Shown: positions 7,066-44,379 of the stretch, piece by piece
How the letters are laid out: each line of letters opens with the position of its first letter
Position numbering within the stretch: the first letter of the stretch is position 1
Origin: a virus
Direction: 5' to 3' (one strand)
DNA length: 64,000 nucleotides
Virus record (IMG/VR): IMGVR_UViG_3300032309_001546
Location: 1 to 64,000 of that record
Notes under the pieces: generated by a model
What the model was told of the DNA's origin: nothing
The model's database searches: none
The model's input: only the letters and a program-made list of their open reading frames with translations
Position numbers and translations under genes: made by a program

Positions 7066-10000
7066 ATGAGCGACGCTCTTAAAACTGCGGTTAATCTCGT
7101 TCAAAGCTTTACTTTTTCTGATGGCATGCAGCCGTCAGCAAAACAGTTTGAAAACATATTTAGTGGCCTAACACAAGGATTGAATATCTTTTCTAATGTG
7201 ATTGGGCCTGCTCTAAATAGTAGTGTTTCTGTTCTTACAAAGAACAAAATTGTAAGTAGCCATAAGTACAACTCTATGATGATTGATACTGAGCGCTCTA
7301 ACTTTGAGAGTGATGCTCAGGAAAGTATTTTAAATACTTTTAACCTAACTAGAATTCTAGGCAGCCATAGCTCTCTTAATCCTTTATACCTACCTGGGAG
7401 TGTGCATCTTGTTGCATCCCAATCATCAGGGTATCCATTAGCTACTGATGTCAAAGTTCAACAGCTACCATTCCCTCCTACTGATGGCTATGACTTCGAA
7501 ATAGATGATGATGGGCGTACTTGGGTACAAGCTGCAAATGCAGCTGCAGCTAGCATTGTGACTGGTGCATATTCTTTTTATATAGATGGCTCAGGAACGA
7601 TTTATACAAATCGTCTTTTTAAAGCTGGCGCTAGCATTAAGTATGATCTCAGAATCCCTAACACTTATGGTGCTCTAGGCTCAAGTTATAACATGATCCC
7701 TGATCCGTCGATTGAGACATTACTTGATGCAGATATCCTTAGCCGCACAGGCGATGGAACATATGGTAGAGTAAAACTAAGCTTGAGAAGCACAGGATCA
7801 GACTATAGTGAATGGACTCTTGTACTTCCTCCTGTTATCTCTCTTAAGGATCCTTTACTAACTAGCTCAACCCAAGGTGTTGCTAATCAAGGCTTTGAGC
7901 CTTTTGGTGTTTTTGAATCTAGCGATAGTAAGAAGTATTATGGTTTAAACAGTGAGCTCTACTTAGAGTCTGGCGGCGGGCTTATTGATAATAATACTTT
8001 AGTTCTTTTTAACGCAGAGTCGGGTAAGAGTTATTTTTTAGATTGGACTTCTGCTAATTTACCCGGCGAAGAAGCGAAACGTACGTTCTATGCCTCAGGC
8101 AGCACTGCTCTTCTCACTCTGTTTAAGAATGATGCTGGAAACTTAATCTCCTCTAATGGGGGATTCAATACGAAGAGTTTTTATATTTTTGCTTTTGGCA
8201 CCAATATTTCAGATACGCTTGCTCAGGTAAATCTAAACTTTGCCAAGCACAAACATGATGGATCTGATAGTTATAGAATTCATCATAATGACTTGCTTGG
8301 TACTCAAAATGGTGTTCAAGGATTTAGTTCTCAAACTGGAACATGGGGTGGACTTGACTTTGTAACTTACAATCGTCAGTTTGCGTTTAGCGATATAGAG
8401 GACAATGTTCATCCTCAATATTTTCACAGATTAGGATTCTTGCATGGAGGAACATCTGGCAAATACAGCGATACTCATTACAACGGGACAGCTTTTGCCA
8501 AAAAAGCTGATTGGAATTTCTTGCATGGAGATCTAGTATTTTCTCCAATTGAAAAAGTTTCTCGTCCTATGCTATACGAAAACTTAGGCGATTCATCTGC
8601 TGATCCAGACAGGAATAAGATAGACTGGGATCTTACATTCGATTCTAATGAATATAAAGGTACGAAGTATCTTGGCAACCTAAGAAGTCATAGCCTTATG
8701 TTTGGTGTGCCGCTTATTATGAATCAAACTGCAGGATCAAATCCTGACGGAGATCTAGATCTTGAGCCTTCTTACAATGGTGCAGTTAGAGTAAGTTATG
8801 AGAATGGCATATTCTATAACGACACATTATATGATGTTGCTAACCAGAAATATAGACTATCAAAACATGGTTTCATCCCAGGAGATGAGACAGGAATAGA
8901 TGGAAATCTTTCTCCTGCATTTAGAGGTCTTAATATTGGATGGGGTAACCTTTTCTTTGGACATAGAGAAGATATCTTCGGAGGAAGAATGTCTGGCATA
9001 TGGATTGGTAAGACAGAGGCGAGTGCTTTTTGGCGCACTGCTGAGTTTAATGTTGTAACAACAGCAAATAGTCAGGCTGGCAAAAATACAAACTCCAAGA
9101 TTAAAGAAGGTTATAACTACCGAGATGGTTTCACAGTTAGAGCGCTTAAAGGTTCTAGCATCTGGTTAAGCACCGGCGCAGAGTCTCCAAGTGTTAATGA
9201 CATTTCTACAGGTAAGAATAGTCTTGGAATTCCAGGAACAATTGCACTAGAAGCTAGCTATCCTAGCTCTAGAGGAACTACTACCTCAGGTACTGATAGT
9301 GGTATTTTTTCGTTAAATACAAAAAATATCTATGATACATATGGAGATGCAATGAGTTCAGGCTCAGGCATTTTTCTTGCTCCAGGGCCGTTTATTGACA
9401 CTGCTGGCGCAGACTCATATCGCAATCCTTGGGTTGCTGCGACAATGGATGATTATAAGTTTGCTTCATTGTGGGACAGTTCTTCATTAGGACCAGTCGT
9501 TACAGGAAATATATTTGATGGTGCAACTTATGCTGGACCAGGGCCAATGCTTGATATATTTGCATTGGCCCCTGATAGACAAAAAACAAATGCTACTTCA
9601 AATGGAAATATTCCAGTTGGCACAGATAGCGATCTTCTTGGTTGGGTTTTCGGTAGGCCTTTTATCCGTGGTACTTATGGTATTAACTTTTGTGTAAATG
9701 GTGGCTTTGTAAATATAGATACTGAATTTAAAAGTGGCTATAATAAAAAAGTTATAAGTTCCCCTTGGGGCCCCACAAGTGCAATTCTTAAAACTTCTAC
9801 CAACGAATACATTCATAGAGAATTTAAATTTTGGGGAAAAAATTACAATGAGGGCCCTAGCGCAAGCGCAGATAGCCATGAAAATACTATGGGTGGGAAT
9901 ATAAATCTTCTATATAACTTTGGAAGAAATTATACTCGTTTTGGGAGAAGCGAAACTTGGAGTAACTCTACAAGTCTATCTGGCGCAACAGGCTCTTCAC

Positions 10001-35693: not shown

Positions 35694-36854
35694 TTACTTT
35701 AAGTAATTTAATGTTCCGCAATACTTAACGTCAGTCTCGTTAAATAATGTATTGCCATCTTCGTCTTGGTAAATGACTGCATATCCTAATGTAACTGCTT
35801 CCTTTGTAAACTTAGCACTGCGCTGATAGTCCATCAACTTAACCAAACAACCTTGTTCCATTACAAGTTTACCCTTGTAGACAAGCTTACCTAGCTTATG
35901 TGTATGTCCCATGACAACGCAATCGTAACTATCCCATTCTAGGAAGTTTTGTAAATAATCGCAAGCTTTAACTACAGTGCCTAGAGGAGCGCTGAGATAG
36001 GTGCTTGGGTGCAAGAATACGGTTTTATTTAGTTGGAGAATCCAAGGGTTACCCTGTGGATTGTATATTACGTTTGGTAGTTCTACAGTGCCAACATGTG
36101 CACCATCTTCATCTAAGATATAACCCTTTGCTAGATAGTATAGAGTGTCTTTACATGCAAACATTTGCATGGTGGGATCAATCTTATTAGCAAAGTATTT
36201 TTCAAGTCTATGCTCGTGGTTGCCACGCACGATATAAACTTGAGGAAAGATTCCAGCAACTTTACGAACAAACTCTAAAGCCATTGTATACTCTAGATGC
36301 ATTGGAATATTCTTATCCTTGGCAAAGCTACTAGCGGCATAGCCATCGAGTAGGTCGCCATTAAGAACAAGAATGTCTGCATCCTTATGTAGCTCAATAA
36401 CTTCGTCAATTAGTTCTTGGTTTTGGAATGGAAAATGAATATCACTTAAACTAAGAATCTTAATTGCTGCTTCTGCAGTGCTAGCCTTCTTAGTCAGATA
36501 AACCTTATCCTTGGCGTCTTTAACAGCTTCAAGATAGGCTTGTATACTACCTGCCTTCTCAACATCCTTAGTAACGTCCTTGGGGTCTTCTGCGCTTGCT
36601 AAAGCCTGGATAACAGTTGGCTTAGTCGGGCCAATCTTCTTAGTCTTGATATTCTTACTACTAGGAATCTTATAGTAATTAATAATCTTATTCAGGGTAG
36701 AAGTGGCTTTAGGATTCTCACCCTTCTGTACTTCTATTGCGCCTCTCTTGGCAAGGCGCTCTAGCGTGTGTCTAGATATATTGTACTTAATACATAGTAA
36801 AGTACCAGGAATCCAAGTATCAAGATCTTCTTTCTGCCAAATAACTGTATTCAT
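35694..36854 (-). CDS. Calcineurin-like metallophosphoesterase with an N-terminal HTH-like segment
   Basis: 'SDIHFP', 'NGDLLD', 'RGNHE' and 'MGHTH'. Confidence 0.85.
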   Translation of the reverse strand: MNTVIWQKEDLDTWIPGTLLCIKYNISRHTLERLAKRGAIEVQKGENPKATSTLNKIINYYKIPSSKNIKTKKIGPTKPTVIQALASAEDPKDVTKDVEKAGSIQAYLEAVKDAKDKVYLTKKASTAEAAIKILSLSDIHFPFQNQELIDEVIELHKDADILVLNGDLLDGYAASSFAKDKNIPMHLEYTMALEFVRKVAGIFPQVYIVRGNHEHRLEKYFANKIDPTMQMFACKDTLYYLAKGYILDEDGAHVGTVELPNVIYNPQGNPWILQLNKTVFLHPSTYLSAPLGTVVKACDYLQNFLEWDSYDCVVMGHTHKLGKLVYKGKLVMEQGCLVKLMDYQRSAKFTKEAVTLGYAVIYQDEDGNTLFNETDVKYCGTLNYLK

Positions 36855-36863
36855 ATATGGACC

Positions 36864-39278
36864 TTACTTTATTAAGGTAATTTTTCCGACTGGGCGAATC
36901 CTTAAGAAATCATCTTTCTTAGTTGCTTTGTAGGAGAAAAATAATAGGGAACAATAGTCAAGCTTTTCTTTCAGTTCTTCGTATTGATCTGAGAACAGCG
37001 TGACTTCTGATATAGAAGATAAATCTTCGATTGTCAATGTTGCCATTAATTTTCCTTTTGATTTACCGCTTTTGATTTGCTGTTCTTTAATATGAGATAC
37101 CGCGACGAGCAGATTGCCTTCGTTGCTATTTGTCTCATCAATATCTTCTATCTGATTAATTAAGATTCCGGGTGGAGTCTTAGTAATATAAGATAGTGGA
37201 TGGCGACTAATAAAGAACTTACAATACTCTGATTCCCACTTAACAATTTGCAGTGGGACTTTATAGTCAGACGTTTTCTTGATAGATTCTAGGTCAGGGA
37301 AAGTAGGCTGATCAGGAACTTTAAGAACTAATGGCTTCTTAGGTCTTGGTTCTGAATACACTTTCTTACCATCTGAGTCTATACTTAAACTAATTACGCC
37401 TGCCTTTAATCTTGCAGACCAATCGTCGAGCAAGGCGGGATAAGCATCTACTTCCTTGTTACGCTCAAAGGCTTGAACTATTCTTGTTTGATAGTTTTCA
37501 ACCTTTGTATAGTAATCAAAGATATCAGAAAGCTTATCTACAAGCTTGACTCTGTCGTAGCCAAAGCTATCGAATGCGCCGACCTTTGCAAGTATACTAA
37601 CAACACCAGAATTAATCTTTGTGCGATTGATTCTAGTAAAGAAGTCAGCCATGCTTGTAAAAGACTTGCGACCGCGTGCCTTAAGTATAAGGTCACTAGC
37701 TTTGTTACCGATGCCATTGATCATGCCAAGGCCAAACAAGATAGTATTGTCATCCAACTTAGTAAAACCAATATCACTATTGTTAATACTAGGTGGAAGA
37801 ATGTTGTAACCCATCTGGCGATACTCGTTGATATATCTGACTAGCTTCTCAGGCTTACCACTTCTGACAGTCATTAGCGTAAGCATAAAGTCTGTAGGAT
37901 AGTAAGTCTTAAGATAAGCATTGAAGTAAGTAATGAAGGCATAAGCAAGAGCATGACTCTTATTAAAACCATACTCAGCAAATGCTGCAATGACATTCCA
38001 AATACGAGTTGCCTCTCCCATATCAATCTTATGAAGACGAGCACAGCCATCTACAAAAAGTGTGCGATATTCTGCCATCAATGTAGCATCTTTCTTGCCC
38101 ATTGCTTTTCTAATCTTATCAGCCTCTTGGAGTGTTACTCCTGCAAGTATCTGACAAGCGGCCATAATCTGTTCCTGATAAATAAGAACACCGCCGGTCT
38201 CAGCAAGTACATCATCAAGTAATGGATGTAACTTATTCTGAGTCTGACGAGTCTTCTTATAGTCAATGTAGTCCTGAAGCAGACCTGAGTCACGAGGACC
38301 AGGACGATTAAGAGCTGAGAAAACTGCAAGATCCTGGACACTCTGTGGCTTGAGATCGGCTACAAGTTTTAGTAGATAAGTCTCTTCCATCTGGAATAAG
38401 CCAGCTGTGAATCCTTTATTGATTAATTCAAACACATTGGGATCATCAGTAGGAACTTCTTCCTCTAGCCACTTGAGTGACTTACCAATACGCTTACAAG
38501 TAAGATCGTTAATTGTAAGGCAATCGATTCTAAGAATGTCGAACTTAATAAAGTTCATTTTCTCTAGAGTTGGACCTTCCCATTGGGTAAGATTGAACCA
38601 GTCTGCGCCTTCAGTCTTGCTCTTCCGGATTGGAATCATCTGATCTACTGGACTTGTGCCAATAAGAACTGCACTAGCATGAACGCTAACTTCCTTTGCT
38701 TGTCCATCTACTGGTCCGCAAAGGCTAAAGATATCTTGATTAGCTTCTACAATCTTTTTGATGTGTTCGCTATTGTCTTCGATTAGTTCTTTATAAGTTA
38801 CATACTTGCCACGGTGACTTTCAGGCAAGCTGTCAGCTAACCGTTCCGCATCGGCAATAGTTCTATATGTGCCATCTGCATGCTTAAGTAACTTAGTGAA
38901 AGCTTTAACGCTTGTCTTAAGAGACCAAGGCTTATAGGTAGATACACGAAGAACACGATCATGACCATACTTAGTTTGCAGTGCCTTGATTAGATCATCA
39001 GCACGAACATTACAAAAGTCAGTATCGATATCCGGGCCTTCGCCATCAACATGATAAGTAACACGCTCATCCGGATTATAAGTGTCAGACAAGCCAAGCG
39101 CATATAGTAATGCAGAGTTACTTTTATTAGCAAGTTTTGCTTTAGACTCAAAGGCCTTGTTGATAAAAGCTAGAGTTTCATCGGTAAGATACCTGACCTC
39201 AAAGTCCAAGTAGTCTTTGCTTATTACATTTAATCTATCATCTGAATAGAATTTATTAAGGTTTTTCTTGTTGATCAT
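36864..39278 (-). CDS. dnaE: DNA polymerase III alpha (DnaE), polymerase core (palm/thumb/fingers/HhH/OB), no PHP domain
   Basis: 'PDIDTDF', 'HASAVLI', 'KFDIL', 'GLFQME', 'ALNRPGP', 'YQEQIM', 'YGFNKSHA.AY', 'FGLGMINGIG' and OB fold 'MATLTIEDL'. Confidence 0.93.
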   Translation of the reverse strand: MINKKNLNKFYSDDRLNVISKDYLDFEVRYLTDETLAFINKAFESKAKLANKSNSALLYALGLSDTYNPDERVTYHVDGEGPDIDTDFCNVRADDLIKALQTKYGHDRVLRVSTYKPWSLKTSVKAFTKLLKHADGTYRTIADAERLADSLPESHRGKYVTYKELIEDNSEHIKKIVEANQDIFSLCGPVDGQAKEVSVHASAVLIGTSPVDQMIPIRKSKTEGADWFNLTQWEGPTLEKMNFIKFDILRIDCLTINDLTCKRIGKSLKWLEEEVPTDDPNVFELINKGFTAGLFQMEETYLLKLVADLKPQSVQDLAVFSALNRPGPRDSGLLQDYIDYKKTRQTQNKLHPLLDDVLAETGGVLIYQEQIMAACQILAGVTLQEADKIRKAMGKKDATLMAEYRTLFVDGCARLHKIDMGEATRIWNVIAAFAEYGFNKSHALAYAFITYFNAYLKTYYPTDFMLTLMTVRSGKPEKLVRYINEYRQMGYNILPPSINNSDIGFTKLDDNTILFGLGMINGIGNKASDLILKARGRKSFTSMADFFTRINRTKINSGVVSILAKVGAFDSFGYDRVKLVDKLSDIFDYYTKVENYQTRIVQAFERNKEVDAYPALLDDWSARLKAGVISLSIDSDGKKVYSEPRPKKPLVLKVPDQPTFPDLESIKKTSDYKVPLQIVKWESEYCKFFISRHPLSYITKTPPGILINQIEDIDETNSNEGNLLVAVSHIKEQQIKSGKSKGKLMATLTIEDLSSISEVTLFSDQYEELKEKLDYCSLLFFSYKATKKDDFLRIRPVGKITLIK

Positions 39279-39570
39279 AATCGTCCAATAAACAATGTTT
39301 AAGAAATACTTGTCTGAAAAGATTTAAAGTTTCCTTTTTCTTCTCAGAGTCACTTGTCCAGTAATGACGAAAAAATAAATACAAAAAAGTAAAGAATGGA
39401 ACTTTATAGATCCAACCTAATTTTTCATGCCAAGTTTGAGTATGGTCTAGCGTAAAACTTTTTACTGGAGAAAAAGTCTCAGTTTCTTTGTTCCAAGTAT
39501 ACTTCTCTTTAAAAACTTTTCTGTAAGATAACTTCTCAGGTGTATATACTATAGACTTTTCATTAGACAT
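39256..39570 (-). CDS. Hypothetical protein inserted between the two dnaE halves
   Basis: About 104 aa from MSNEK; overlaps the stop of the PHP gene and the start of the core gene; aromatic-rich. Confidence 0.55.
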   Translation of the reverse strand: MSNEKSIVYTPEKLSYRKVFKEKYTWNKETETFSPVKSFTLDHTQTWHEKLGWIYKVPFFTFLYLFFRHYWTSDSEKKKETLNLFRQVFLKHCLLDDYDQQEKP

Positions 39571-40846
39571 TTTCAAGCTCTTTAATATCTTCTGAGTAGT
39601 CTAAAGTAATTCGGACTCGACCAGGATTGAGAAAGCGCTCGAACAGCAGACCATGTTTAACAGGATCAAGATGCTTAGCTGTGATTCCTAGTGACCATGA
39701 GATCAAAGATCCACCACCAGAACCACGCGCTGGGCCAACAGGTATACCCATATCCTTAGCTAGGCTAACATAGTCTTGAACGACAAGGAAATAGGAACTA
39801 TACCGTGCCTCGTCAATGACTTGGAACTCATATCTAATTCTATCCTTGTAGGCTTTAGGGACATCAGCCCAGCTCTTTACGCCAAGCCGAGATATAAGAC
39901 CAGCCTTAGCCTTCTTAAGAAGCATTAGGCTTGTCCCCTCAGGCGTCATTCCTTCAAGCTGAAGATTCGGTGCCTTAGTTACTCGCTCAAAGTATGAGCC
40001 ATCTACAAGATCTGCTACATGCTGAGTATTAGTGATTGCTTCATGTGGTAACTGCCAGTCATCACAAAGAGTCTTTGCGAACTCTGCATCATACATCCAA
40101 GCATTATGATCTTGAACTTCATATGGCATTGTGTCTGGAGTCTTATGCATGCTCACACACATAACATAGCTACGCAACTTGTACTGATCTTGGTTCTGAT
40201 GATGAGCATCAGCTGTAAGTACAAGAGGAATATTCTTGCGTTTGCTTAGATCAATTAGATATTGATTGTAACCATACTGCTTTTCAACATTATTATGCTG
40301 AAGCTCTAAGAAGAAGCTGTCGTCGCCGACCGCCTCCTTAACTTCATCACACCATCTATCTATCTTTGCATGTTCACCCCAGTGCCAATACTTAAAGCAC
40401 TGACTACTGATACAAGTACTAGTAGCAATTAAGCCTTTAGCGTGTTGCTTAAAAGTATCTAGATCGATACGAGGATAGCGATAAAAGCCATCTTCATATG
40501 AATACTTAGTAAGCTTCATTAAGTTCTTATAACCTTCTTCGTTCTTAGCAAGTAATAGGAAGTGGCCATTGTTAACTGCTTTCTCGGCTACGCCATTCTC
40601 TGGCATAAAATCAGACTTAGTCTTGGCATCGCCAAAAGCAAGATATGTTTCATTACCAATGATAGGCTTTACGTTAGCAGCACGACAGCCCTTTACAAAT
40701 TCTGGGATGCCACCCATATATCCATGATCTGTCAATGCAACTGCATTCATTCCTCTGGCAGCAACAGTCTTACCCATTTCATCGGCTGGCTGTAAGCCAT
40801 CAAGCAATGAGTAGTAGCTATGCGCATGGAGATGTACCATTCCCAT
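39563..40846 (-). CDS. dnaE: DNA polymerase III alpha (DnaE), N-terminal PHP domain plus start of palm
   Basis: 'HLHAHS.YSLLDG', 'LTDHG', 'GNE', 'GHFLLLA', 'STC', 'DAHH', 'GPARGSGGGSL' and 'LLFERFLNPGR'; start moved to ATG 40846. Confidence 0.93.
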   Translation of the reverse strand: MGMVHLHAHSYYSLLDGLQPADEMGKTVAARGMNAVALTDHGYMGGIPEFVKGCRAANVKPIIGNETYLAFGDAKTKSDFMPENGVAEKAVNNGHFLLLAKNEEGYKNLMKLTKYSYEDGFYRYPRIDLDTFKQHAKGLIATSTCISSQCFKYWHWGEHAKIDRWCDEVKEAVGDDSFFLELQHNNVEKQYGYNQYLIDLSKRKNIPLVLTADAHHQNQDQYKLRSYVMCVSMHKTPDTMPYEVQDHNAWMYDAEFAKTLCDDWQLPHEAITNTQHVADLVDGSYFERVTKAPNLQLEGMTPEGTSLMLLKKAKAGLISRLGVKSWADVPKAYKDRIRYEFQVIDEARYSSYFLVVQDYVSLAKDMGIPVGPARGSGGGSLISWSLGITAKHLDPVKHGLLFERFLNPGRVRITLDYSEDIKELENV

Positions 40847-40889
40847 ATTATTCTCTCGTTTAAGTTTAAAGATTAATAAAACACCAATA

Positions 40890-40918
40890 GGCGACAAGGC
40901 TAAATATAGCCCGCCGCC
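40890..40918 (-). terminator. GC-rich hairpin after phoH (terminator-like)
   Basis: GGCGGC-GGGCTA/TATT/TAGCCT-T-GTCGCC followed by a partially U-rich TATTGGTGTTTTATT. Confidence 0.5.
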
Positions 40919-40931
40919 ACATGGTTTGCAA
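40903..40931 (-). promoter_or_regulatory. Sigma-70-type promoter for the dnaE operon
   Basis: TTGCAA-17 nt-TATATT on the - strand. Confidence 0.55.
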
Positions 40932-40943
40932 TAGCAAAAAGTA

Positions 40944-41846
40944 CTAGTCTACTAGTTTCTTGCAGATTTGTATTCCGAGCTCAGCTAATGGGCTGCGCTC
41001 AATCTCGATAAGCTCAATAAAGCTAGTAAGAGGACTTTGCTGATAGATGTCAAGTCCAATTGTCTGAAGCACTGGGCAAGGTTTGCCCTTGCGATTTTCC
41101 TTTTCATCAATCTGATCTGTGTCAGCCATAAGTATTAACTTACTCTTCTCACCTAGGCGAGTGATTAGAGTCTTGAACTGATGGATTTCAACGTTCTGTG
41201 CTTCATCGCAAATGACTAATGCATTTGTAAAGTCTTCACCGCGCATGTATTCCAAAGGAATGCACTCAATCTTTCCTTCCTCAAGCTTCTGCTCAAAGAT
41301 CTTTAGGTAGGTTTTACCCCAGATCTTAGCAAGAGCACGCTCATAGGAGCTGAAGACCGGTCTCATCTTGTCTATAATCGTACCTGGAACATCGCCAATT
41401 CTACCGCCACTGCTGGTGGTAGCCTGGGCTCTGCTCTTTGTCAAGATAATCTTGTCATATTTCTTTTCGTCAAGCATATTAATCGCCGCAACCATTGTCA
41501 CATAAGTCTTGCCAGAGCCAGCTCCACCAAAGACTGTAAGCATTGGAATGCTTTGATCATACAAAGATGAAAGTAAATATTTTTGCTCTAGATTCTTAGG
41601 AGCAAACTTCTTAACTGTAGGTAAATTAATATTGACTAATGCTTCGCCGTTCCATCTCTTAAGAGCGCTATAGCTACCATGTCTAAAGCACCAATAGCTA
41701 TTAACTGGTGGTGCAGACATCTCGAACCAAGGATCAAAATCAAGTTCATCAATAGTAACAGGGTCATCCGTGAACAGTGGACCTAGATCTGCAGAATATT
41801 CTACATCAATTATGGTCGGATGAAATACTTCCTTTGGTTCTTGCAT
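40944..41846 (-). CDS. phoH: PhoH-like ATPase
   Basis: 'PKNLEQ', 'GGAGSGKT', 'IGDVPG...K', 'YMRGE', 'DEAQN', 'TRLGE', 'DTDQID' and 'ERSPL'. Confidence 0.92.
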   Translation of the reverse strand: MQEPKEVFHPTIIDVEYSADLGPLFTDDPVTIDELDFDPWFEMSAPPVNSYWCFRHGSYSALKRWNGEALVNINLPTVKKFAPKNLEQKYLLSSLYDQSIPMLTVFGGAGSGKTYVTMVAAINMLDEKKYDKIILTKSRAQATTSSGGRIGDVPGTIIDKMRPVFSSYERALAKIWGKTYLKIFEQKLEEGKIECIPLEYMRGEDFTNALVICDEAQNVEIHQFKTLITRLGEKSKLILMADTDQIDEKENRKGKPCPVLQTIGLDIYQQSPLTSFIELIEIERSPLAELGIQICKKLVD

Positions 41847-41854
41847 TGGCTTCC

Positions 41855-43291
41855 TTACAAAAGTAGTTTGTTGTACCTCTCAAGAAACTCAGATTTAGCA
41901 AATTTTTTGTAATCACTAGGCAGTATTAGATAGAAGTTTTCAGGAATAAGTTCTTTTTGTATTTCAGGAATTATGCCGTCCGTAAAGCAAAGCACTGCAT
42001 CATATTTATATCTTCCGTTGTATTGGCCAATTATTTTTAACGCCGGATTCAAATCTGTGCAGCCACCGCCTTTCCATTCAATCGTCTCTGCAAAGTTCTT
42101 ATTTCTTGCCTTCTCTATGTCTCCTCTCACCTCGCTATCATTCATAACATAATGAACACTAGCATAACTTGCTAGCTTCCTTAAATAAGATACAAACTTT
42201 TCAGCAAGCTGAGTATCAATACTTCCAGAAGTGTCGAAAATACAAGCAATTAGAGGCTTGTCTGATTTCTTAGGACCAGGTAGGATTCCAGGCAAAACTA
42301 CGTTATAGCTTGCCCATGAGACACCTGTCTTGTATCTTTTGCCAGGTCGGTTTAGAGTCTTTAGAAAAAGAACAGCATCTCCTTCGTAAGGTTTTACCTC
42401 AATATTTTTACTGTCAAATTTATCTAATTTCTCGAATGAAAGAAACGGAGTAGTATTAATTTCAACAATTTTTGCAATTTGTTTTTCAATTGAACTAATT
42501 CTTTCATTTTGTTCTTCCTCGGAGATATCACTATCATCAAGGACCATGTCCATACTTAACTGATTTATTTCTTTTTGTTCTTGCTTTTCTATAAAGTCTT
42601 GATAATCGGGACTATTTTTTAGCCAGTTAAAGATTTCTTTAGCTGTAACATTATAGATTCCTTTTCTTAATCCATATTCTGCATGGAACAACTTACTGTT
42701 AGGATGTAAATAGTAAGCAGATAAATCAGGATGAGCAAAAGCAGCTTGCTCATCAATGCGGAAAGCATTGAAGAAAAACTTACCTTGTGCATTCTGCAAA
42801 GGATAATTTACAAAATCACTTGGATCATCTAGTTGAGTAAAAGATTCTACATATTCATAAAGTAACTCAGTATTAATTTTCATGTCCTGAGCAACATTCA
42901 TAAGATAGCGATCTTCAGCTGGGACCTTAAACATAGAAACAGGATGAGCATAAACAAAATGCTTTAGCTCATGTAGCAAGATAAAATAGAAAGTCTTATC
43001 ACTTAATCTGCTAATGTTATCTATGTTAAAGTATAAAGCATATTCTTTAGTACTAGGAGTCCAGGCGATACAAGCTATAAACTCAGGATTAAAACCTTGA
43101 CCTGTAGCTTCTTCTTTGGTTAAGAAGTATCTGTCTAGACAAATCAAGTACTCAGATAGATTAATAAATGTATAAGCAATTGCATATGGGATGTAATCAG
43201 TAATAGGACTGTCTTTGCCCTCCTTGATAGCAATCAAAGAGCGACAAAGATCAGTAATCTTATTAGCGTAAATCTTTTTTAAAGCATCCAT
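41855..43291 (-). CDS. Metallopeptidase-like + VWA domain protein (DUF2201-like)
   Basis: 'LLHELKH...H', 'MNVAQDMKIN'; MIDAS 'DTSGSI', 'GGGCTD' and 'FTDG'. Confidence 0.85.
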   Translation of the reverse strand: MDALKKIYANKITDLCRSLIAIKEGKDSPITDYIPYAIAYTFINLSEYLICLDRYFLTKEEATGQGFNPEFIACIAWTPSTKEYALYFNIDNISRLSDKTFYFILLHELKHFVYAHPVSMFKVPAEDRYLMNVAQDMKINTELLYEYVESFTQLDDPSDFVNYPLQNAQGKFFFNAFRIDEQAAFAHPDLSAYYLHPNSKLFHAEYGLRKGIYNVTAKEIFNWLKNSPDYQDFIEKQEQKEINQLSMDMVLDDSDISEEEQNERISSIEKQIAKIVEINTTPFLSFEKLDKFDSKNIEVKPYEGDAVLFLKTLNRPGKRYKTGVSWASYNVVLPGILPGPKKSDKPLIACIFDTSGSIDTQLAEKFVSYLRKLASYASVHYVMNDSEVRGDIEKARNKNFAETIEWKGGGCTDLNPALKIIGQYNGRYKYDAVLCFTDGIIPEIQKELIPENFYLILPSDYKKFAKSEFLERYNKLLL

Positions 43292-44379
43292 TATTTCTTT
43301 ATATGAAGGCTAATCATTTCATAGAACTCGGGCACAAACTTCTTAGCATAATCTCTTAGATACTTAGTCTGATCAAGTTGTTCCTGTGACATATTAGGAA
43401 TTAGATTTCTATATGTAAAGTAGATGCCAACTAGCTCTGATCTAGAAACATCTGGAGTCTTTAGCCAAGCTTCAAGTTTACCATTATAGAAACTTGCATC
43501 TGCTAGCCAGTCTCTTCCATTTAGAATCTGGAACCATTTAAAGGCAAGATTTGCTTTAACTAATCCGGTAGCTAAGGCAATAATTGCTTCTCTTAGGTCG
43601 CCTGTGATGTTCTGATTATTATTATTAATCTTCCACCACATACACCAAGCAGCAAGCCTAGCAAGTATCTCTATGGTACGAGGACATGGGCTAACTTCCT
43701 TATCAACAGACCAGGTTCCGGTTAGTTGATTATTCTGAAATCCCTCTATTAGATCAGTACTATTATTAAGTATAAAGCTAAAAGCAGGATCTATATGACC
43801 TAACCTTGACTCAAGGAAGGAGTTGGTATCTAGTGCGTAGTGCACATGACTCCATCTAGCTTTCATTGCTTTATCAAGCGTGTCTGTATTGAATTCTCCA
43901 GTAGGTGGGTTACAAGCAGATAGTAAACGACTGACAGGAGGTAGTTTATACTCTCCAAGGCGACGTTCTGCGGTAATACTCATCATTGCATTTATACCTT
44001 CTTGCGTGCCGCGATTTAACTCGTCAGCAAACAGGACATATATACCACTGAGGCTAGCAGGAATCCAAGATGGCCTGGTCTTAGTATGAGTCATATACTG
44101 ATGATCAACAACTGGGATACCCCAGTCAGCTGTGTCAGTATGCGCAAGACGAAGATCATAAAAGGTCTGAGGACCTAACTTATTAATCTTAACACTAGCA
44201 AACTCACTATTACAGAACATAGGAACATCTGCTTTTATATCAGCAAAAAAGCTCCTAGTAGTCTGTTCAATGATTGTACTTTTACCAATACCACTGGCTC
44301 CCCAGACGCAGACAGGAATATCTGCGTCCAGGGAGATTCTAATAGCAAGCTCCAATTGCTTGTTATTAATTGTAGACAT
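43291..44379 (-). CDS. MoxR-like AAA+ ATPase
   Basis: 'WGASGIGKS', 'DLRL', 'LFADELNR', 'ACNPP', 'LDKAMKARW' and 'PCPRT'. Confidence 0.88.
   Translation of the reverse strand: MSTINNKQLELAIRISLDADIPVCVWGASGIGKSTIIEQTTRSFFADIKADVPMFCNSEFASVKINKLGPQTFYDLRLAHTDTADWGIPVVDHQYMTHTKTRPSWIPASLSGIYVLFADELNRGTQEGINAMMSITAERRLGEYKLPPVSRLLSACNPPTGEFNTDTLDKAMKARWSHVHYALDTNSFLESRLGHIDPAFSFILNNSTDLIEGFQNNQLTGTWSVDKEVSPCPRTIEILARLAAWCMWWKINNNNQNITGDLREAIIALATGLVKANLAFKWFQILNGRDWLADASFYNGKLEAWLKTPDVSRSELVGIYFTYRNLIPNMSQEQLDQTKYLRDYAKKFVPEFYEMISLHIKK

Follow-up and report, generated by a model that had tools for sequence, protein, structure and literature searches.

A DnaE-type replicative polymerase encoded by two adjacent phage genes, with a degenerate duplicate of a palm segment at the break

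A stretch of 64,000 nucleotides (nt) of viral DNA (IMG/VR record IMGVR_UViG_3300032309_001546, positions 1 to 64,000; hereafter the window, meaning this whole stretch), from a large, uncultured phage of lake water, carries on its minus strand a DnaE-type replicative DNA polymerase that is divided between two adjacent genes, dnaE-N and dnaE-C. An earlier note, made from the letters of the DNA, had described a two-gene, intein-free C-family polymerase at this position, and this description is upheld by a Pfam model cut between the two genes, by their separate open reading frames (ORFs) and by conservation of the arrangement in relatives. Both halves are as that note stated, but it overlooked a third gene of 104 amino acids (aa) lying between them. 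The features of the locus, in window coordinates and with residues numbered within each protein, are as follows.

40846..39563, minus strand: dnaE-N, 427 aa (ORF, Pfam), comprising a PHP domain and the first, deoxynucleoside triphosphate (dNTP)-binding, part of a Pol-beta-like palm, then a 17-aa tail and a stop codon.
40295..40834, minus strand: PHP domain with nine ligands, H7, H9, D16, H41, E66, H95, C145, D213 and H215, from alignment to Mycobacterium tuberculosis DnaE1 (5lew/7pu7).
39719..39727, minus strand: R374-G375-S376, counterpart by alignment of R362-G363-S364 in the incoming-dNTP pocket of the Escherichia coli enzyme (PMC4374717).
39635-39637, minus strand: R404 of the FERF motif, counterpart of E. 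coli R390.
39566..39616, minus strand: N-tail, residues 411-427 (VRITLDYSEDI...), conserved and strand-like, for which pairing with leader residues 74-75 is predicted.
39570..39256, minus strand: intervening 104-aa ORF, between the halves, in frame +1.
39278..36864, minus strand: dnaE-C, 804 aa (ORF, Pfam), comprising a leader, the second (Mg-binding) palm part, fingers, HhH and a C-terminal region.
39036..39278, minus strand: leader of dnaE-C, residues 1-81, a degenerate duplicate of N-half residues 310-397 (hhalign).
39015..39035, minus strand: catalytic strand P82-D83-I-D85-T-D87-F88, with counterparts of E. coli D401, D403 and D405.
38538-38546, minus strand: K245 and D247, counterparts of E. 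coli K553 and D555.

The three minus-strand genes are packed closely in frames 0 (dnaE-N), +1 (the 104-aa ORF) and +2 (dnaE-C), such that the ATG of the 104-aa ORF lies over the dnaE-N stop in an 8-nt overlap (ATGTCTAA) and the final 23 nt of that ORF are shared with the start of dnaE-C; a scan for promoters and terminators between the genes performed no better than chance. The ORFs bear out both the previously noted stop of dnaE-N, 17 residues past FERFLNPGR, and the leader of about 80 residues described for dnaE-C, which places 81 residues ahead of PDIDTDF, among them NSALLYALGLSDTYNPDERV. In Pfam the break cuts PF07733 at model position 100/101, with positions 4-100 in the N-half (residues 310-412) and 101-259 in the C-half (residues 81-249), and phrog_405, a full-length phage DnaE family, is likewise covered at 42-440 by the N-half and at 443-1052 by the C-half. 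PF02811 (PHP) matches N-half residues 5-184 (E 2e-41), and the fingers and HhH regions of the C-half are represented by PF17657 at residues 269-413 (E 4.4e-44) and PF14579 at residues 490-578 (E 2.9e-23). A C-terminal OB fold is not among the Pfam matches of the window's C-half, which has a weak alignment to the OB region of the Thermus aquaticus (Taq) enzyme; PF01336 (OB) is present in the relatives P0122, P0124, P0127 and P0130.

Over their lengths the two products resemble known single-chain enzymes, dnaE-N matching M. tuberculosis DnaE1 (E 2.7e-58) and dnaE-C matching Taq Pol III alpha (E 3.6e-82). The order of PHP, palm, fingers and HhH is that of single-chain DnaE (M. tuberculosis DnaE1, 5lew/7pu7; T. 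aquaticus, 2hpi/3e0d), and none of the nine PHP ligands or of the polymerase active-site residues is lacking. Unlike those enzymes, the polymerase in the window is not encoded as one continuous polypeptide but as two ORFs in different frames with a third between them, in a layout that is conserved; the cut lies between FERFLNPGR and PDxDxD, and it is accompanied by an extra, degenerate copy of the palm segment.

Every part of the locus is under purifying selection, with ratios of nonsynonymous to synonymous substitution (dN/dS) of 0.02-0.03 in both cores, rising to 0.05-0.09 in the N-tail, 0.07-0.09 in the leader and 0.11-0.14 in the 104-aa ORF. Six independent IMG/VR contigs from different metagenomes keep the three-gene layout at 91-96% protein identity, the stops and starts of the three genes are conserved, and DNA runs of 17 studies, mostly of lake water, contain the stretch; the assembly artefact that the earlier note had allowed for is therefore ruled out. 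More broadly, the proposal that the split represents a broken gene (pseudogene), or an artefact of assembly or sequencing, has nothing in its favour besides the unusual layout, and is scarcely credible given the low dN/dS of both cores, the identical layout in the six contigs and its recurrence across studies, a family that reaches down to 34% identity, and the fact that this is the only polymerase found in the record. Within the locus, the synonymous divergence (dS) of positions 39036-39570, covering the 104-aa ORF and the leader, is 1.1-1.6 in comparisons with the related loci L001 and L002, a two- to threefold excess over the flanking cores (0.4-0.7), which suggests local recombination or a different history of this stretch.

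The residues expected of a polymerase active site are distributed over the two chains. In the E. coli enzyme R362, G363, S364 and R390 form the incoming-nucleotide pocket (PMC4374717), and D401, D403 and D555 are catalytic, with D405 conserved (PMC3919608). The counterparts of the first group, R374, G375, S376 and R404, all lie in the N-half and are invariant across the N-half family alignment; those of the catalytic aspartates (D83, D85 and D247) and of the conserved D405 (D87) lie in the C-half and, with K245, are invariant in 27 C-halves. By this residue mapping a complete polymerase site is present in neither chain alone, and the partition of dNTP-binding residues and catalytic aspartates argues that the N-half is an obligate partner, forming part of the polymerase active site, as opposed to a detachable proofreader.

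All nine metal ligands of the PHP domain match those of M. tuberculosis DnaE1, in agreement with the full ligand set reported in the earlier note, and they are invariant or nearly so in 21 N-halves. Searches for PolA, PolB, a DnaQ-type exonuclease and DnaN found none of these in the 146-kb record, which is about 84% complete, and at that completeness the split DnaE is the only recognisable DNA polymerase of the phage. The combination of all nine PHP ligands with the lack of a recognisable DnaQ-type exonuclease makes it likely that the PHP domain is the proofreading exonuclease.

Comparison of profiles indicates that the leader of dnaE-C is a degenerate partial duplicate of the palm segment that precedes the break. 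Profile methods were needed to detect this relationship: pairwise BLAST of the leader against the N-tail or N-half gave no significant match (E 17), and Pfam applied to the leader alone returned DUF7463 only (E 0.07). In hhalign, however, a profile of 64 leaders aligned with one of 21 N-halves over 73 columns (P 90%, E 1.7e-6), pairing leader residues 4-76 with N-half residues 310-397, compared with a best E of 0.11 among 30 column shuffles and an E of 0.72 when the alignment was reversed. The N-tail region and the leader also align to the same residues of unsplit DnaE proteins (377-413 in that of Streptomyces phage Hydra and 381-413 in M. tuberculosis DnaE1), and the leader of a relative, P0139, is aligned by Pfam itself to PF07733 positions 68-100. 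The earlier observation of a palm motif in both genes is in this respect confirmed, although the copy, at about 75 aligned residues, is longer than the SL..Y.LG motif on which it had been based. A full HMMER scan with C-half residues 1-159 identified about 60 clusters (at 50% identity) of C-halves of roughly 800 aa that match from residue ~5 and have a homologous leader. A six-frame hidden Markov model (HMM) search of the gap revealed no DnaE remnant in its other frames. Among cultured phages, tblastn of the leader and blastn of the locus gave no match, and tblastn with a typical split C-half (P0127) found none carrying the leader.

An alternative is that the C-half is self-sufficient, the leader copy completing its palm, with the N-half serving as a detachable PHP proofreader. 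Consistent with this, the leader retains the helix motif NS-LLY-LG-SD and is conserved, with R15, E27, N51, N54, S55 and G62 invariant or nearly so, and the PHP domain has all its ligands. However, the leader has L49-A50-N51 opposite R374-G375-S376 of the N-half, an 11-residue gap facing VSLAKDMGIPV, which includes the IPV strand, and no FERF; the dNTP-contacting residues that it has lost are those held, without variation, by the N-half family; and in the model of the complex described below it is the N-half, not the leader, that faces the catalytic strand. We consequently consider a self-sufficient C-half very unlikely, and the "detachable proofreading subunit" of the earlier note is not sustained.

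Association of the two chains was modelled with N-half residues 280-427 and C-half residues 1-430, each supplied as an alignment, and the result supports their binding. The interface score ipSAE was 0.72, against 0.00 for the best control; 58 of 80 solved complexes attained this mark, as did 2 of 110 mismatched pairs, counts that hold only roughly here given the use of own alignments. Model runs agreed in at least 91% of contacts, with a partner predicted local distance difference test (pLDDT) score of at least 81. The tightest predicted contacts, between N-half strand 368-371 and helix 359-366 and C-half residues 87-100, correspond to the normal palm sheet, in which strand 368-371 pairs with C-half residues 87-88. 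As to which copy completes the palm, a check that the earlier note had proposed, the IPVG strand and R-G-S loop of the N-half sit in the model against the C-half catalytic strand and not against the leader. The model further pairs residues 414-416 of the N-tail with residues 74-75 of the leader and brings leader helices 26-58 into contact with the N-half fragment. The pattern V..xLDFSxDL of the N-tail is conserved and ends every N-half of the family, and tails are seen in other lineages too. The N-tail/leader contact, which is modelled and not measured, is the only one that has no solved precedent, and it fits a docking role.

A different explanation would be that the halves are rejoined into one polypeptide, by a self-splicing intron in the 290-nt gap, by ribosomal bypass or frameshifting, or by protein trans-splicing. 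There are indeed group I introns in phage dnaE close to this site, as in L026 (Rfam Intron_gpI, 89.8 bits) and, with two weaker matches, in Bacillus phage vB_BceM_WH1; the gap RNA folds slightly better than shuffled sequences (z -2.4); and many leaders read HN-S, superficially like the ending of an intein. In window positions 36000-41500, however, no group I ribozyme core and no other Rfam match was found at E up to 1, in a search for which L026 (89.8 bits) and L089 served as positive controls, and the gap is occupied by the 104-aa ORF, whose own reading frame is under purifying selection. The three genes lie in differing frames with conserved stops and starts, the halves in L035 are 1 nt apart in different frames with no room for an intron, and the contigs placed on the stretch contain no joints, though their cover is poor. 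In agreement with the earlier note, which had seen no intein termini, no intein or Hint family was matched in Pfam (E up to 0.01), the tail comprises only 17 aa, and the leader is homologous to the palm and not to Hint. A split-intein reading of the leader's HN-S was rejected for the window, which reads SN-S at this point. On this evidence, rejoining by any of these routes seems very unlikely.

Two other phage loci show such intron matches in dnaE in more detail. In L026 (7545-8560) the C-half is cut a second time by the group I intron (8319-8534), which lies inside the PDxD codons, so that "...GSPPD" is followed by "...IDIDF", and which carries a LAGLIDADG gene (7574-8365). In L089 (4420-8618), which is the cultured, 230-kb Bacillus phage vB_BceM_WH1 (LC597490.1), dnaE is annotated as three coding sequences, the gaps between which are filled by two sub-threshold matches to group I introns (E 1.9e-4 and 1.7e-5), the first of them starting right after PDVDTD.

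The same breakpoint, which the earlier note had suggested looking for in related phages, recurs in 19 further N-halves of 396-440 aa and 34-95% identity, all of which stop just after NPGR; the layout is old, under selection and common in uncultured phages. Across 80 viral loci, three classes were distinguished: canonical genes that are not split, unsplit genes in which 105-112 aa are inserted in frame between NPGR and PDxD, and genes split inside that module. The second class comprises 22 unsplit jumbo-phage DnaEs, on contigs of up to 479 kb, whose insertion shows homology to the leader (P 97.7%, E 1.4e-12) and a weaker similarity to N-half residues 297-389 (E 1.1e-4), and the duplication therefore exists without fission. 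The distance between the halves varies among split loci as follows.

L035: gap of 1 nt.
Window group: gap of 215-284 nt, with a small ORF.
L024 and L027: gap of about 700-800 nt, with LAGLIDADG genes.
L018, L022, L029 and others: gap of up to about 1030 nt, with other small ORFs.

In a tree of the C-half core the window falls in a clade of 37 sequences (Shimodaira-Hasegawa-like approximate likelihood ratio test, SH-aLRT, 97), all of which are split except P0131. This metagenomic sequence, an unsplit canonical DnaE of 1121 aa, is sister to the window's 10-row subclade (SH-aLRT 99), and its N-terminal part, at 45% identity, is closer to the window's N-half than are some split members. Since P0131 is nested in the split clade, the split state has changed more than once; the backbone of the tree is weakly supported and fixes neither the order of duplication and fission nor the number of origins. 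Both the partial duplication and the fission proposed in the earlier note are thus present, but the 22 unsplit genes with the module and the placement of P0131 indicate that they are separable events. P0131 itself may be a re-fused gene or one in which the duplicate has collapsed. A further arrangement is seen in L081 and L085 (4965-10468), where PHP alone (327 aa) stands apart from the rest of DnaE (914 aa), with four unrelated genes between them, including a metallophosphoesterase-like ORF.

The intervening 104-aa ORF is a real, lineage-restricted gene under purifying selection, found in 14 clusters in which it is always 104 aa long and 73-96% identical, falling to 34% identity in the next subgroup; other lineages have unrelated genes at the same place. 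It matched no family in Pfam, PHROG or the atlas (atlas scores <=0.85), is not a recognisable homing endonuclease, and gave no tblastn match to cultured phages; its AlphaFold model (pLDDT 59) was too poor for a fold search.

Directly downstream of dnaE-C, at 35694-36854 on the minus strand, lies a gene for a 386-aa calcineurin-like metallophosphoesterase (PF00149, E 2.4e-13). Similar genes sharing a "..GYAVIY.." ending follow dnaE in the distant relatives L016, L021 and L024, which suggests that the metallophosphoesterase is a conserved partner of the polymerase. Upstream of dnaE-N, positions 40944-44379 (minus strand) hold a PhoH-like ATPase (PF02562, E 2.2e-40), a 478-aa ORF and a 362-aa ORF.

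Division of a C-family polymerase at this boundary has a precedent in the minimal split Pol III alpha of group 2.2 jumbo phages (Iyer et al. 2021, Viruses 13:63, PMC7824862), which consists of an NTP-binding subdomain at the N terminus and, at the C terminus, one that binds Mg and template, with neither PHP nor any further Pol III domain; its genes lie far apart, and it occurs alongside a family B polymerase. The NTP-binding and Mg-binding subdomains are separated at the same boundary in both systems, and Iyer et al. likewise deduce that their two proteins come together as a single enzyme; in contrast, the window has PHP, fingers and HhH, adjacent overlapping genes, a duplicated segment and no PolB in its record. 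Dassa et al. 2009 (PMC2677866) described genes, three DnaE loci among them, that are fractured, carry split inteins and have a free-standing homing endonuclease. These similarly place a replication gene in two adjacent genes with another gene between, and LAGLIDADG genes occur in L024 and L027 of the present family, but the window has no split intein with which its chains would be ligated, and its intervening ORF is not a recognisable endonuclease. We found no paper on a full-length, intein-free DnaE split with a duplicated palm segment, within a partial coverage of the literature.

Other intein-free split phage enzymes reportedly include the T4-like gp43A/gp43B family B polymerase and the NrdA-a/NrdA-b of Aeromonas phage Aeh1, with mobE. 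PolA of the OM43 phages MEP401/402 is also split, with a small ORF in the gap (PMC10580990). Common to these three and to the window is an essential enzyme cut in its catalytic domain, a presumed or shown non-covalent complex, and a small or mobile gene in the gap; they differ from it in belonging to other enzyme families, and a duplicated segment at the break is not reported for them, so far as read.

The DnaE-type replicative polymerase of this phage is thus encoded as two polypeptides in adjacent genes, and we consider it probable that the halves complete one active site, with the N-tail and leader docking and PHP as proofreader. The break falls between two successive copies of a palm segment whose losses complement each other: copy 1, at the end of the N-half, has kept the dNTP-binding motifs, and copy 2, the leader, has lost them. 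The N subunit supplies PHP and the dNTP-binding half of the palm (the R-G-S loop, the FERF arginine and the IPVG strand), and the C subunit the Mg-binding aspartates, fingers and DNA-binding domains; a single active site would be built from both chains. The N-tail and leader would together form a docking module that holds the chains without covalent bonds, and the three genes would probably be co-translated. Once divided, the gap may have become a drop-in site, filled by the 104-aa ORF here and by homing endonucleases, or nothing, elsewhere.

Several points weigh against this interpretation. The support for a split product comes from DNA and not from protein or RNA: two RNA-library runs contain 4-5% of the words and cover positions 39961-40100 and 38929-39156 only, with none spanning the junction, a cover too thin to speak for or against splicing or expression. 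With the record about 84% complete, the part that is absent might encode another polymerase or an epsilon subunit. The palm interface of the model resembles that of solved single-chain DnaE, so that this part of its agreement may reflect likeness only, and the mapping of the N-tail onto a degenerate catalytic strand is our own inference, from a stretch too short to test.

An extension of the two-chain interpretation would make the N-tail and leader a dedicated docking domain for reversible assembly, with an exchangeable or regulated PHP/dNTP subunit and, in this lineage, the 104-aa protein, coupled in translation, as a third subunit or assembly factor; the split would also be a reversible evolutionary state, because unsplit P0131 nests in the split clade. 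We regard this elaboration as doubtful, though somewhat less so than the alternatives discussed above.

Should biochemistry bear it out, the two-chain polymerase would represent a C-family replicase of full length in which two proteins, with no intein involved, assemble a single active site, a duplicated catalytic piece acting as the clamp. It would show, in a natural case of wide occurrence, a gene divided through duplication and complementary loss, and would have a bearing on the capacity of a Pol-beta-like palm to withstand division, along the lines that Iyer et al. put forward for the minimal version. There would also be consequences for annotation, in which the halves are usually labelled "partial" DnaE and the leader is overlooked, and the cut would represent a recurrent landing site for homing endonucleases and other cargo.

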